A stretch of 64,000 nucleotides of DNA from a virus (Duplodnaviria; Heunggongvirae; Uroviricota; Caudoviricetes), in the IMG/VR virus record IMGVR_UViG_3300028805_000039, positions 127,852 through 191,851 of that record. One strand, written 5' to 3'. Positions within the stretch are counted from its first letter, which is position 1. Each line of letters opens with the position of its first letter. Below, piece after piece: positions 12,100 through 41,893 of the stretch. The notes under the pieces are model-generated. The model saw only the letters and a program-made list of their open reading frames with translations. It made no database searches and was not told where the DNA came from. Position numbers and translations under genes: made by a program.

Positions 12100-12190
12100 A
12101 GTATGTAAGATAAAGGAAAAGAAACGGAGCCTTGTCCTACTAAAAGGCTTTAGAATCTGGTAGGTAAATCTTTTGAAAGAGGTAGATACT
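12100..12190 (+). promoter_or_regulatory. conserved structured 5' leader of the family-X genes (ggagccttgtcctactaaaaggc...agaatctggtag...gaaagaggtagatactATG)
   Basis: near-identical leaders precede 12191, 18258 and 21521. Confidence 0.5.
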
Positions 12191-12595
12191 ATGTCTCGTA
12201 AGCTGTCCTATGTTTCCGCGATTGATTTCGCTCTGTCCATCCTGTCCCAGATTGATGCTGCTCAGGTGGCTATCCCCGCCGCCAAGGAAGAGGACACTCC
12301 GGTGTCTGTCGGTGAGGTTGTGGAGAAGCTGACCGCTCTCCGTGAGAAGCAGGCCGCTCGTTCGGCTACTAAGGCCGAGGGGCCGACCAAGGCCCAGCTT
12401 GAGCGTGCCGCCCTTGCCTCCCGCATCGGTGATGCTATGGAGCCGGGTGTGACCTACGGCAACGCCGAGATTGCCGCCCTCCTGCCGGAGCTGGCTGGTG
12501 CTACTCCCCAGCGTCTGTCTCCCCTCATGGCTCTGCTCGGTGAGCGGATTGTGACCTCTAAGGTCAAGGGCAAGAACTACTACACTCTTGCCTGA
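12191..12595 (+). CDS. family-X protein (paralog 1 of 4; C-terminus ...KGKNYYTLA)
   Basis: paralogs at 18258, 21521 and 41486 share the C-terminal block and leader; start refined to MSRKLSY. Confidence 0.6.
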   Translation: MSRKLSYVSAIDFALSILSQIDAAQVAIPAAKEEDTPVSVGEVVEKLTALREKQAARSATKAEGPTKAQLERAALASRIGDAMEPGVTYGNAEIAALLPELAGATPQRLSPLMALLGERIVTSKVKGKNYYTLA

Positions 12596-12852
12596 CCTAA
12601 AGGCTCCTAAGGGGTCGAGCCTTTCGGCCTCTTTCCAGTCAGTTTCTGGCTTTTCTGAGACAAAAAGGGCCACATAATAAAAGGTGGATAAAGGGCTTCG
12701 GCTCTCCACTATTTTTTCCTTGCGGACTGGGCCCTCTGCAAGGTTTTTTATTTATCTTCAATTAGCAAAGGCTAACCGCCCGGGCACTTTGTTAAAGAAA
12801 TAACTTTCAAAAACCTCTTGACTTTTTGCCAAAAGAGAGTATAATAATAATT

Positions 12853-12956
12853 GTCAAGGGGCAAGAGAACTGATAAAGTAGGGACAGCCCCAATGTGAGG
12901 ATTGCTGAATGACCTTGCTTGAAAAAATTTCAAAGAAATTTGAAATCCCCCTTGAC
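12853..12956 (+). ncRNA. small RNA unit with complementary ends and the tttcaaagaaatttgaaa palindrome
   Basis: gtcaagggg ... tttcaaagaaatttgaaatcccccttgacaag. Confidence 0.4.
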
Positions 12957-13015
12957 AAGAAAGAAAAAGCATGATATAATAAAATCACAAAGAAAGAAAA
13001 AAGGAGATAAAACAA

Positions 13016-38637: not shown

Positions 38638-39564
38638 ATGTCAAATACAGACAGCTATGCAGCAACAGCTCCTAATATAACAGTTACTTCATCTTTACAA
38701 GGTAATACTATTACACTTAATGATAATTATACATTTACTACTAATACTGTTGGAGGAACATCAGACTGGGGATTATAGACAACTGTTACAACTCCAACTT
38801 GGACAGTTAGTGATAATTATTACAACAATGTTTAGCAAAATGTATTATATATGAAAGATGACCGAACTCTATGTTGGGGTGATCCAAATAAAGAAAAAAA
38901 GGAAGATAAAAATAATATGGCAAATGAATTTGATTTTGGCCCATATGAAGGAAGTAATATTAGATTATCAACATATGGAATAGCATTGAAAAATAAAACT
39001 GGTAAATGGGTTTCTTATGATAAAGATAAGAAAAGATTAATGGATGTTGATGTATTAAATATTCCAGTAGATACAAAGAAACTTGTTTATAAAGTACCCA
39101 AAGCAGTTGACGACGTAGATGAAGGCGATGTTGTCATTCATAATGGAAATCTTGTTATTGTAGAAAAAAAGCAAGGAGAAGGTAGATTTTTAGCAGTAGA
39201 TCCAATTGCTGGAACTGAGTATGTAATTTTACCTGCAGTATCACCATTTGGGTTTGATTATTTAACTACAATTATTAGTCTTGCGTCTTATTTACCAGCA
39301 GCAGATAAGAAGAATCCTTTTGGTAGTTTGTTACCTTTAATGCTATCTACAAAAGATAATAATGGTTTGCTTATGTCATTGCTTTTGGGAGATAATATGT
39401 ATAATCTTGATCCTACTGTTCTTGCATTAATGTTAAGTGGAGATGTATCTTCTTATATTCTTTTAATGATGCTTAATGATAAAGAACAAAAGAAGAAAGA
39501 AAAAGATTATGAAAAATTACAAAAAGCATTAAAGGATGCTAGGGCTCGTAGAAACGAGCAGTAA
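38638..39564 (+). CDS. hypothetical protein of about 308 aa; recoded (in-frame TAG at about 38776 and about 38833)
   Basis: ATG 38638 (RBS ttggagtg) is in frame with track ORF 38851 through two TAGs; MSNTDSYAATAPNITVTSSLQGN... Confidence 0.5.
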
Positions 39565-39636
39565 TATATTGGGAATTTTTACGTTTTAGTAAAAATTCCC
39601 TAATTTACTATTATATAAAAAAGGAAGTATTTATTT

Positions 39637-41277
39637 TTGTTAGAATTAATTAATGATGCAGAACAAGAACTTATTCAATACTATATTTCATCTTTTGGAC
39701 CGATTAATAATGATAGTTTAAATCGTCCAATGGCTTCTTTGGATACAATTTTTGCCGAATGGGAAAATTCAAAAACTACTCTCTTTAATATGCTCGGTAA
39801 CTAGTTAATTGTACGACGTCCATATACCTATGTTATTCCAGAACAAAATTTAATTAATACTTTTACTAGTAAAAAATATGAGAATGATTGTTGGGTATTT
39901 CTTTGTTGGTGGAATAGAGAAATTATTGCTCCTTTAACTAATCAAAAAGATATAGACCCTGATTTTCTTCAATTATGTTATGATATTGTTAAACCAGCTA
40001 CATTAGCAGAAAATAAATATTTAAATAATACCAAAGTATTCTATTTGCCGCCTGATAATGAGTCTTTTAAAGTTTCAAAAGGTATGCGGCCTATGAGAAT
40101 TATCACTAAATTAGCTCAAAAATATGGTTGTAAAGAAGAAGTGCTAGAAAAATTTCGTATTTGGCATTCTCAAATTTTAAATAATAAACATATGGATGGA
40201 GAATTGTGCTTATCAATTCACCCACTAGACTTTATGACTATGAGCGATAATGATAATGATTGGCAAAGTTGTATGAATTGGATGAATCATGGAGATTATC
40301 GCGCTGGTACTATTGAATGTATGAATTCTCCTTACGTATTGATGGCTTATTTACATAATCCTAAGCATAAAATGACATTCGGTTCTTAGAATGAATATGA
40401 GTGGAATAGTAAACATTGGCGTGAATTATTTATCATTTATCCAGAAATGATCACTGAAGTAAAAGGATACTGTTTTTAGGATGAAAATTTAACTAATACT
40501 GTTCTAATGTGGATTAAAGAATTGGCTCATAATAATTTAAATTGGGATTATGATGATGATGAAATTAATCTACAAGATAGTAATCCTATACCTTTTAACG
40601 AAGGAGATTTATATTTTCGCGTATATCCTGAAGGATATATGTATAATGATATTGGGACATTAGATAAGCATAGAGCCCGAATTAATCGAGAAAAAATTGG
40701 TAAATATGAAAATATTACTCACTGGTTTGTCCCAAATGAAGAAAAATGGCATTATATGCTTGAACTTCCTTATGGCGGTAAAGCGACTTGTATGTGGTGT
40801 GGTAGAGAATATAGTGAGCCAGATAGAGAAGAATTTGTGTTTTGCGAAAATTGTGATCCATCTACTCGTTGTTGTTATTGTGGAAATTATATAAGAGAAG
40901 AAGATGGATATTATATTGATGATTATGATGGATTAATTTGCATTGATTGTTTAGATTATGAATGTGGTATTGATGATTTAACAGATGAAACTCATATTAA
41001 TAGTAATTTAGATTATATTGAATGGTTAATTGGATATAATGAAGATAACGATCCTATCTTTTATGATGAAGGAATTTGGGTTTATCATCCAAAAGAGAAT
41101 GATAAATATAAAGAATTGTTTTCTAATCCGCCTAAAACTATGAACAATCATTATAGACATCATCAATATATTACAGTAGATGATATTATTAATAAAAGCG
41201 AGTTTGAAGATGTATTTAACTTAAATAATAATATTGAAAATATTATAGCTGAATACATGCAAAAAAATAATAACTGA
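39637..41277 (+). CDS. large hypothetical protein (about 546 aa) with a C-terminal Cys-rich zinc-finger region; recoded (TAG at 39802, 40387 and 40477)
   Basis: track ORFs 40045..40389 and 40507..41277 plus the upstream segment share frame 1 and are separated only by TAG codons; probable TTG start after an aaggaag RBS. Confidence 0.5.
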
Positions 41278-41485
41278 ATAAACTCTTAATTGATTTTTTT
41301 AAAAAAAAATTATATAATATATATGTAAGATAAAGAAAAGAAAAAAACGTCTTACAAAAGAAACAGACATACTTATTAAGAAAAAACGAAATTTAATTTG
41401 AAAATTTAAAAAAAATATTATATAATAAGTATGTAAGAAAGACAAAAATAAATAAAAAAATTAAAAAATGAAAGGTGAATGAATT

Positions 41486-41893
41486 ATGTCTGATTCTGTT
41501 GTTAAGGTTACTAAGCGTGAGCGGTATGAGGCTATTAAGACTCTTTGTAGTATGGCTGAGAATGTTGGAGATCTTGATATTGATGGAATTATCGCTTTTT
41601 GTGATAAGGAAATTGAGACTCTTGATGCTAGAGCGGAAAAGGCTAAAGAGCGTGCTGCTATTAAGCGTGCCGAGGGTGATGAACTTTTGGAGATTGTCTA
41701 TAATGCTCTTACTGATGAATTTGAAACTCGTGATGCCATTACTGAGCGCATTGGCAATGAGAATATTTCTGTTGCAAAGGTCACTTATCGTTTGACTTCT
41801 CTTGTTAAGGCTGGTCGAGCTGTAAAAGACGAGACAAATGTCACTGGGGCTGACGGAAAGAATCATCGAGTTTCAGTTTATAAGTTAGCATAA
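41486..41893 (+). CDS. family-X protein (paralog 4, in the late module)
   Basis: ...VTYRLTSLVKAGRAV...VYKLA C-terminus. Confidence 0.55.
   Translation: MSDSVVKVTKRERYEAIKTLCSMAENVGDLDIDGIIAFCDKEIETLDARAEKAKERAAIKRAEGDELLEIVYNALTDEFETRDAITERIGNENISVAKVTYRLTSLVKAGRAVKDETNVTGADGKNHRVSVYKLA

Follow-up and report, generated by a model that had tools for sequence, protein, structure and literature searches.

A compact leader pseudoknot conserved ahead of early genes in uncultured phage-like sequences

The translational operator of T4 gene 32 consists of a 5' pseudoknot followed by an unstructured A/U-rich tract, and both T4 gp32 and ribosomal protein S15 repress their own translation. To our knowledge, structured cis-regulatory RNAs have been described from few phages beyond the models (T4 gene 32, the regA targets, lambda nut, and HK022 put). 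The subject of this study is a pseudoknot of 36-37 nucleotides (nt), hereafter the knot, found in the leaders of three of the four paralogous genes (family X) in a 64,000-nt stretch of DNA from IMG/VR virus record IMGVR_UViG_3300028805_000039 (positions 127,852 to 191,851), referred to at its full length as the window. The window appears to come from a large uncultured phage: it carries 29 tRNA genes together with a ROOL RNA, and megablast of the locus found no close relative among 50,697 GenBank phage records. Near-consensus promoters of the sigma-70 type occur across it by the dozen, in repeat families.

A preliminary description of this DNA reported a conserved structured leader in the three early copies, and this is borne out in the window by exactly three exact copies each of the leader core CTACTAAAAGGCnTAAGAATCTGGTAG (0.00 expected) and of the initiation region GAAAGAGGTAGATACTATG (0.02 expected). 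The same description drew two separate hairpins. Because the 5' arm of the second hairpin sits within the loop of the first, the two are instead one H-type pseudoknot, with interleaved helices and compensatory changes in both. Stem S1 (NNNUU/AANNN) has 5 base pairs (bp) and often 7, and stem S2 has 5 bp with an invariant closing C-G pair; loop L1 is G-Y-(C), L2 is UAA, and L3 is nUnAGAAUCUG, which contains AGAAUCUG. The only clear compensatory change in the window is a C-G to G-C exchange in S2 of copy 3 relative to copies 1 and 2. Folding the four leaders as single sequences was uninformative (minimum free energy z-scores of +0.34 to -0.15), the method being blind to pseudoknots. The late copy, copy 4, does have a different leader, as had been noted: 48 nt, A-rich, with a predicted fold of -1.6 kcal/mol and no knot by covariance model or sequence inspection.

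Relatives of the knot were gathered by pattern scans of IMG/VR, JGI metagenomes (at least 119 loci), and GTDB species genomes, which together yielded at least 135 distinct sequence contexts; counts given below are among the matches listed, and each scan pattern fixed some loop nucleotides, so that loop invariance is partly built in. S2 occurs in 13 sequence variants, including CCUAC, GCUAC, GUCGC, GUCAC, GCCGC, GUAGC, CCUGC, GCUGC, CCCAC, UCCAC, and CUCGC. Of 117 distinct instances, 116 pair perfectly in S2, and the one that does not is a featureless chance match. A scan that left S1 free returned four variants of that stem, every one paired: the common GCCUU/AAGGC, GGCUU/AAGCC, GGGUU/AACCC, and CCCUU/AAGGG. 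In alignment A5 the core pairs of S1 and S2 are 100% paired, with double-sided changes at four of the five S2 pairs and three of the five S1 core pairs. The covariation score is 0.394 as compared with 0.154 in shuffled alignments, none of 500 shuffles attaining the observed value, and sliding the partner by 1-3 columns leaves 30-49% of cells able to pair versus 95% observed. G-U pairs are present in S2 (GCUAC/GUAGU and UCCAC/GUGGG) and, in 21 of 117 instances, in the optional extension of S1; the RNA is the sense strand, because these pairs would be A-C mismatches on the opposite strand. The fold of the knot is genuine and strongly selected. Two other candidates were set aside. A double-stranded DNA operator was dismissed on three RNA signatures: complementarity kept by otherwise arbitrary sequences, interleaved arms, and G-U pairs. 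Pairing of the 16S rRNA 3' tail with S1b AAAGG, judged by eye, was excluded by the S1 variants AAGCC and AACCC.

The covariation also bears on whether the knot has any function. In one rival view the leaders are alike only because a cassette of promoter and leader was duplicated or gene-converted not long ago. Copies 1 and 2 agree at 95% of positions in the promoter, 84% in the leader, and 94% in the pseudoknot, versus 57% in the coding sequence. The cassette was recently copied inside this genome, since copies 1 and 2 have the same 17-nt promoter spacer, and therefore the window alone cannot part selection from gene conversion. Once relatives are added, however, the structure covaries beyond mere promoter duplication. 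All 13 S2 variants and 4 S1 variants are paired, they come from several phage lineages, and a functionless cassette would require at least a dozen compensatory double substitutions; the covariation refutes it, and we regard it as having almost no standing. The cassette of copies 1-3 is seen nowhere else in the window, and a block in the spacer and Shine-Dalgarno region, GAAAGAGGTAGATACT, is identical in all three. The promoter variant was correctly described as shared by the three early copies; it is not limited to them, since the 17-mer TATAATAAGTATGTAAG is exact at 12093, 18162, 21408, and also 41421, each time ahead of a family X gene. A copy with one mismatch lies at 21276, and at up to three mismatches there are 11 matches in the window versus 0.83 expected.

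Junction and loop sequences are constant in all instances found, with most of these positions fixed by the scan patterns. Two small checks argue that the invariance is genuine. The covariance model, applied unfiltered to the window and to 429 kb from related loci, gave bimodal scores, either 40 bits and above or 17 bits and below, and no intermediate ones that would mark diverged knots, and a pattern with L3 left free found no other L3 sequences, returning four known knots with the same L3 (n=4) and 16 unrelated coding matches.

The knot is confined to phage-like sequence. Among 185,579 species-representative genomes there are three true knots, all in contigs of metagenome-assembled genomes with phage-like genes; blastn found no knot in the 50,697 GenBank phage records, and tblastn of family X against GenBank phages gave one weak uncultured match. 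Judged by their names, the knot-bearing metagenome contigs look like rumen or gut material, and titles among the genome-scan matches name yak rumen and water-buffalo abomasum. A scan of the window at the gathering thresholds of Rfam 15 (4227 models) reported tRNAs and ROOL only. Permissive scans (E up to 10) of two window leaders (copies 1 and 3) and of the three-module leader of the related locus L016 gave nothing above 18 bits, with all matches at E of at least 0.36 except a 17-nt match to the T-arm of tmRNA (E=0.00079) that lies upstream of the leader. At the same permissive limit PreQ1, SAM-II/V, and guanidine-III do not match the knot, and the lone PreQ1 match (15 bits, 21335-21382) is an A-run upstream of it. 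No prior description of the motif or of such a phage leader pseudoknot was found in the searchable literature, and the element is a new RNA family within a known general kind, the leader pseudoknots.

We give roughly even odds to the reading that the knot acts in cis in translation initiation, as an element peculiar to phages that either a conserved protein or the ribosome recognises. One line of evidence for it is the position of the knot relative to the start codon. In 80 of the 124 contexts with a called downstream open reading frame (ORF), 24-31 nt separate the 3' end of the knot from the ATG, with a mode of 26, and all three window knots end 26 nt ahead of the ATG. Between the -10 box and the knot there are 29-81 nt overall and 30-44 nt in the window. 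Past the knot come an A/U-rich, G-poor spacer, whose sequence varies from lineage to lineage, and then GAGG or GGAGG, which places the strong Shine-Dalgarno sequence 12-14 nt beyond the knot (GAGG at 12179-12182 in copy 1, 8 nt before the ATG; 18246-18249 in copy 2; 21509-21512 in copy 3). The spacing from knot to ribosome-binding site is conserved and the spacer sequence is not. The knot is also used with differing downstream genes, and inside operons without a nearby promoter: at locus L128 two knots follow the stop codon of the gene before them by 14 and 41 nt, within a row of genes that all run in one direction and have no promoter-like and no terminator-like sites.

On this reading, the messenger of each early paralog (copies 1-3) folds into a sense-strand knot ending 26 nt before the AUG, and the knot would influence initiation in cis by offering an operator or docking site to a macromolecule that is conserved across these phages or their hosts. 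In one form, a trans-acting RNA-binding protein of phage or host would bind there and repress or activate loading of the 30S subunit from -27 to -63; in the other, the 30S subunit itself would bind the knot as an enhancer or standby site. The present data do not separate the two forms. Copies 1-3 would make up one post-transcriptional regulon, with copy 4 outside it.

Several points weigh against this account. The mechanism is reasoned from sequence features, and the effect could be either activation or repression. About one third of related leaders have other hairpins between the knot and the Shine-Dalgarno sequence, at distances of 38-67 nt, and because of these insertions the spacing is not absolute. 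The spacing may also stem in part from common descent of a cassette of knot, spacer, and Shine-Dalgarno sequence, although the divergent spacer sequences speak against this. The invariance of the loops is partly a product of exact-pattern searches, and the unbiased checks are small. Finally, a compact knot with a conserved junction also resembles an aptamer. The inserted leader modules of the relatives, both absent from the window, are a hairpin of the form GGGU-[4 bp]-ACCNA with a covarying stem and, in some relatives, a GC-rich hairpin. These modules occur with or without the pseudoknot, for example at L016 (minus strand, near 10000), L013, L012, L007, and L008.

The likeness to an aptamer has been considered in a broad and a narrow form. 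The broad form, that the knot is a phage-only aptamer class serving as a riboswitch for a small molecule related to host or defence, or as a structure that docks the 30S subunit, is a tentative alternative and clearly the less probable one. The narrow form, a small-molecule riboswitch aptamer of a new class with preQ1-I-like size and topology, through which a host metabolite or signal would adjust the translation of early phage genes, is unlikely. It draws on the 36-nt H-type topology with freely covarying stems around a constant core of junction and loops, on the location of the knot in the 5' untranslated region, and on an order of domains that is that of preQ1-I. An expression platform was not found, however: the Shine-Dalgarno sequence lies beyond the knot, no intrinsic terminator (T-run) was found after it, and no competing pairing that covaries with S2 was seen. 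Downstream repeats of the S2b 5-mer are present in 5% of cases versus 0-17% for foreign variants, complements of S2a between the knot and the ATG show no excess over foreign variants, and the GGUAG in the Shine-Dalgarno region of the window does not covary with S2. The downstream genes are heterogeneous and neither metabolic nor transport genes, the species genomes contain no cellular copies, and Rfam has no match among the riboswitch families named above or elsewhere.

The genes behind the knot bear on autogenous control, in which a family X protein would bind the knot in its own messenger and repress its own translation. The preliminary description suggested autoregulation or a shared RNA-binding regulator. 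Among the 124 downstream ORFs, 107 match the family X hidden Markov model (HMM) and about 8 more are diverged relatives with the same architecture; several knot-bearing paralogs occur per genome, and a knot followed by an unstructured A/U-rich tract is what the T4 gene 32 operator has. The same knot nevertheless precedes unrelated genes at L015, L022, L128, L146, L147, L239, L255, and L257: two different small ORFs at L015, two as well at L022, ORFs of 201 and 312 amino acids (aa) at L128, and a 109-aa family at L146, L147, and L239. Pfam and PHROG scans of these genes gave no annotation, and no family X member was found in the approximately 52 kb of DNA from the eight loci. The knot core is constant, but the proteins fall to 20-30% identity with just four nearly invariant residues, and their predicted fold matches winged-helix repressors that bind double-stranded DNA. 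Family X members without the knot include window copy 4 and the IMG/VR homologs at L001-L010, which were retrieved by protein, and therefore the knot is not obligatory for family X. Autogenous control is doubtful on these grounds, and binding of the knot by the gene product as a general rule appears unlikely; a shared RNA-binding regulator seems to fit the data better.

Family X most likely comprises small winged-helix DNA-binding proteins, a guess of the preliminary description that the structural model and weak but consistent profile matches now favor. An AlphaFold2 model of copy 2 from a 39-sequence alignment (mean predicted local distance difference test score 86.2) has two N-terminal helices, a KPTxxQ linker, and a C-terminal winged helix in which a predicted three-helix bundle (residues 59-74, 83-95, and 100-113) is followed by a beta-hairpin wing (strands at 116-121 and 124-129). 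Foldseek against PDB returned generic winged-helix domains only (PadR, Zalpha, TubR, RosR, and ArsR/SmtB; E about 5e-3), the top target-normalised TM-score being 0.85 for a 62-aa Zalpha domain (4kmf_A). The family profile matches BlaI/MecI, RosR, and ArgR-N at E of 0.002-0.01, and PF12840 (HTH_20) matches homologs of copy 4 (7 of 39 alignment members, best E 1.8e-7); copies 1-3 remain below every Pfam gathering cut-off, those of MarR, PaaX, Penicillinase_R, and HTH_20 included, at 11-18 versus 22-25 bits. The C-terminal 70 residues thus resemble winged-helix repressors (BlaI/MecI, PadR, ArsR/HTH_20, RosR, and MarR) in their predicted bundle and wing, whereas the two-helix N-terminal extension and KPTxxQ linker are found in family X alone. 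There are hundreds of metagenomic members of the family, none named, and it has no named homolog and no solved relative.

Two further readings concern the transcript and not its translation. The knot could govern the fate of the RNA, as a barrier or recognition site for a ribonuclease (stabiliser or processing site) or as a put- or nut-like modifier of RNA polymerase. The window knots do lie close behind the -10 boxes of strong promoters, tRNA genes that need processing stand behind copies 2 and 3, and copy 3 and some relatives carry an added 5'-terminal hairpin (those of the relatives, GTGAGAGAGAAA..TCTCCAC, are analogous to that of copy 3). Yet the spacing to the ATG is tighter than that to the promoter, knots are also found in intercistronic gaps without any promoter-like site, and a stabiliser needs no constant loop or junction sequence; this reading is improbable. 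More improbable still is that the knot is an RNA decoy, for example one that imitates a ToxI/CptI-like antitoxin of type III and so neutralises an abortive-infection nuclease of the host. The 36-nt size and pseudoknot fold are like those of ToxI units, and abundant early transcripts would carry the decoy, but each leader has a single unit and none are in tandem, the spacing is tied to the ribosome-binding site, the species genomes hold no cellular counterpart with this core, Rfam has no ToxI match, and the downstream genes are not toxN-like.

The family HMM, run against all six-frame ORFs of the window, has exactly four matches, which agree with the paralogs of 125-135 aa previously placed at 12191, 18258, 21521, and 41486 (Table 1). 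Judged from sequence comparison, their homology is genuine, though uneven. Copies 2 and 3 are the closest pair (74% nucleotide identity), copy 1 matches copy 2 by BLASTP at E=4e-7 (34% identity across 74 aa), copy 4 matches copy 3 at E=1e-8, and copy 4 is related to copy 1 only transitively, through copies 2 and 3. Of the conserved C-terminal block first described, GVTAGTVTALLTQLYKAG is confined to copies 2 and 3, and the looser ending K.KN..Y.LA is the sole C-terminal motif common to all four. A start of copy 1 at TTG 12173 was set aside, and the true start is ATG 12191. A metagenomic contig of 239,565 nt encodes proteins identical to copy 1 (134 aa, P0121) and copy 4. The coding sequences have a G+C content of 61%, 55%, 54%, and 40% in copies 1-4, respectively, 12-20 points higher than the surrounding DNA, and this gives rise to long spurious antisense ORFs.

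Table 1. Positions of family X genes, leader elements, promoters, and adjoining tRNA genes in the window
Feature	Position	Strand	Description and evidence
Copy 1 pseudoknot	12129-12164	+	Covariance model 58.8 bits; descriptor scan
Copy 1 knot, S1	12129-12133, 12144-12148		S1a GCCTT, S1b AAGGC
Copy 1 knot, S2	12136-12140, 12160-12164		S2a CCTAC, S2b GTAGG
Copy 1 knot, loops	12134-12135, 12141-12143, 12149-12159		L1 GT, L2 TAA, L3 TTTAGAATCTG
Copy 2 pseudoknot	18198-18233	+	Covariance model 60.4 bits; descriptor scan
Copy 2 knot, S1	18198-18202, 18213-18217		S1a, S1b
Copy 2 knot, S2	18205-18209, 18229-18233		S2a CCTAC, S2b GTAGG
Copy 2 knot, loops	18203-18204, 18210-18212, 18218-18228		L1, L2, L3
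Copy 3 pseudoknot	21458-21494	+	Covariance model 71.1 bits; descriptor scan
Copy 3 knot, S1	21458-21462, 21474-21478		S1a, S1b
Copy 3 knot, S2	21466-21470, 21490-21494		S2a GCTAC, S2b GTAGC
Copy 3 knot, loops	21463-21465, 21471-21473, 21479-21489		L1 GCC, L2, L3
Copy 1 promoter	12070-12109	+	-35 TTGACA 12070-12075, 17-nt spacer, -10 TATAAT 12093-12098
Copy 1 conserved start region	12099-12109	+	AAGTATGTAAG; promoter in repeat families D10/D13
Copy 2 promoter	18139-18178	+	TTGACA 18139-18144, TATAAT 18162-18167, AAGTATGTAAG 18168-18178
Copy 3 promoter	21385-21424	+	TTGACA 21385-21390, TATAAT 21408-21413, AAGTATGTAAG 21414-21424
Copy 4 promoter	41398-41437	+	-35 TTGAAA 41398-41403, -10 TATAAT 41421-41426, start region AAGTATGTAAG
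Extra 5'-terminal hairpin, copy 3 leader only	21423-21450	+	GCAAGAGGGA...TCCCCTGCTG; minimum free energy and centroid structure
A/U-rich spacer and Shine-Dalgarno sequence, copy 1	12165-12190	+	26 nt
Family X copy 1	12191-12595	+	134 aa; family HMM match, E=6.5e-42
Family X copy 2	18258-18650	+	130 aa; two N-terminal helices and C-terminal winged helix (predicted)
Family X copy 3	21521-21898	+	125 aa; family HMM match
Family X copy 4	41486-41893	+	135 aa; longer wing (predicted); family HMM match
tRNA-Lys(UUU)	18692-18767	+	41 nt past copy 2, before hairpin 18811-18834
tRNA-Glu(UUC)	21942-22018	+	43 nt past copy 3, before hairpin 22074-22097

The tRNA-Lys gene with copy 2 and the tRNA-Glu gene with copy 3 probably form one transcription unit each, and their placement suggests mRNA-tRNA co-transcripts that require processing. 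Both tRNAs are followed by the same hairpin, CTCTA(T/C)CAC-TTTAAT-GTGGTAGAG, and a CCCGGGCG motif (18692-18834 and 21942-22097, plus strand). The slot of the tRNA is occupied after copy 1 by a 165-nt stretch (12596-12760, plus strand) that is GC-rich, with several hairpins and a T-run at its end, and in which no tRNA and no Rfam match were found. Upstream of copy 3 lies a tRNA-like minihelix (21253-21372, plus strand) with its own promoter (TTGACA 21253, TATAAT 21276), a GGGCG/CGCCC acceptor, a GCCCC/GGGGC hairpin, a T-arm GGGGGGTTCGATTCCCCCC, and a 3' CCA; ARAGORN reports no tRNA here, and the T-arm alone gives the tmRNA match mentioned above.

The window falls into two compositional halves with distinct promoter dialects. 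Positions 1-25000 have a GC content of 37-47% and promoters of the type TTGACA-N17-TATAAT with several conserved start-region variants, and positions 26000-64000 have a GC content of 26-36% and about 25 copies of TTGAAAATTTnAAAAAAATATTATATAAT. Between 4894 and 21047 (plus strand; for example 11916, 12787, 17895, and 20967) lie 8-10 copies of a second promoter class, GTATTGACTTTT...GAGTATAATAATAATTGTCAAGRGG, which has a conserved transcribed start peculiar to it (families D5 and D11) and may be another leader family. Just 5' of early promoters, a palindrome CGCCCGGGCG followed by ATTGTTAAATAAATAACT recurs in about 10-15 copies from 3966 to 23318 (plus strand; families D9 and D15; for example 7744, 8361, 10327, 11899, 14159, 14869, and 20244); it may be what is left of a terminator, or a site on the DNA where a regulator binds, possibly the winged-helix family X itself. 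An iteron-like array at 27441-27818 (family D16) contains CGGTAAAATTTACCG at least 8 times, at intervals of about 33 nt, and sits at 26-30 kb, where the GC skew goes negative; it is a candidate replication origin. The full-length ROOL RNA (RF03087, 292 bits, model positions 1-574) is at 52506-53129 (plus strand), in the tRNA-rich half.

The knot is a compact motif with full covariation support and at least 135 natural contexts, and it has neither an Rfam match nor a cellular counterpart. It is carried by uncultured phages, probably of rumen and gut, both large ones (about 240 kb, tRNA-rich, and ROOL-encoding) and smaller ones. Viromes can be searched for the post-transcriptional regulon that the motif defines, and at 36 nt the motif offers a handle for pulling down its factor and is small enough for structural and ligand screening. 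If it recruits ribosomes or senses a signal, it would be a new phage route to the takeover of host translation and a portable part for synthetic biology. If it is a phage-only aptamer, then chosen early messengers would have privileged or conditional access to ribosomes, and the knot would be among the smallest natural regulatory RNA folds and the first restricted to bacterial viruses.

Among known systems, the leaders of E. coli rpsO (S15) and the alpha operon (S4) are likewise cis-acting pseudoknots of the 5' untranslated region, and theirs control 30S loading via a protein, by entrapment or displacement. Those knots include the Shine-Dalgarno sequence or start codon, whereas the phage knot ends at -27; they are cellular and mimic rRNA, whereas the phage knot is confined to phage-like sequence and, as judged by eye, rRNA mimicry was not found. 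PreQ1-I (RF00522) has the same S1a-L1-S2a-L2-S1b-L3-S2b order, a similar size (about 34-37 nt), and a purine-rich L3. It differs in that its covariance model does not match at the knot, the phage S2 and L3 are longer, and the Shine-Dalgarno sequence is outside the phage knot; the downstream phage genes are of predicted winged-helix type or unannotated and not queuosine-related, and the phage knot has no cellular members. The T4 gene 32 operator shows no similarity to the knot in sequence or by covariance model, and the proteins encoded here are of predicted winged-helix type or unrelated, not single-stranded DNA-binding proteins; the tract is shorter here, with about 12-14 nt to the Shine-Dalgarno sequence, and one knot serves many genes. 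What the two have in common is an early or middle phage messenger, an H-type knot well upstream of a Shine-Dalgarno sequence that lies outside it, and an A/U-rich, G-poor tract leading from the knot to the ribosome-binding site.

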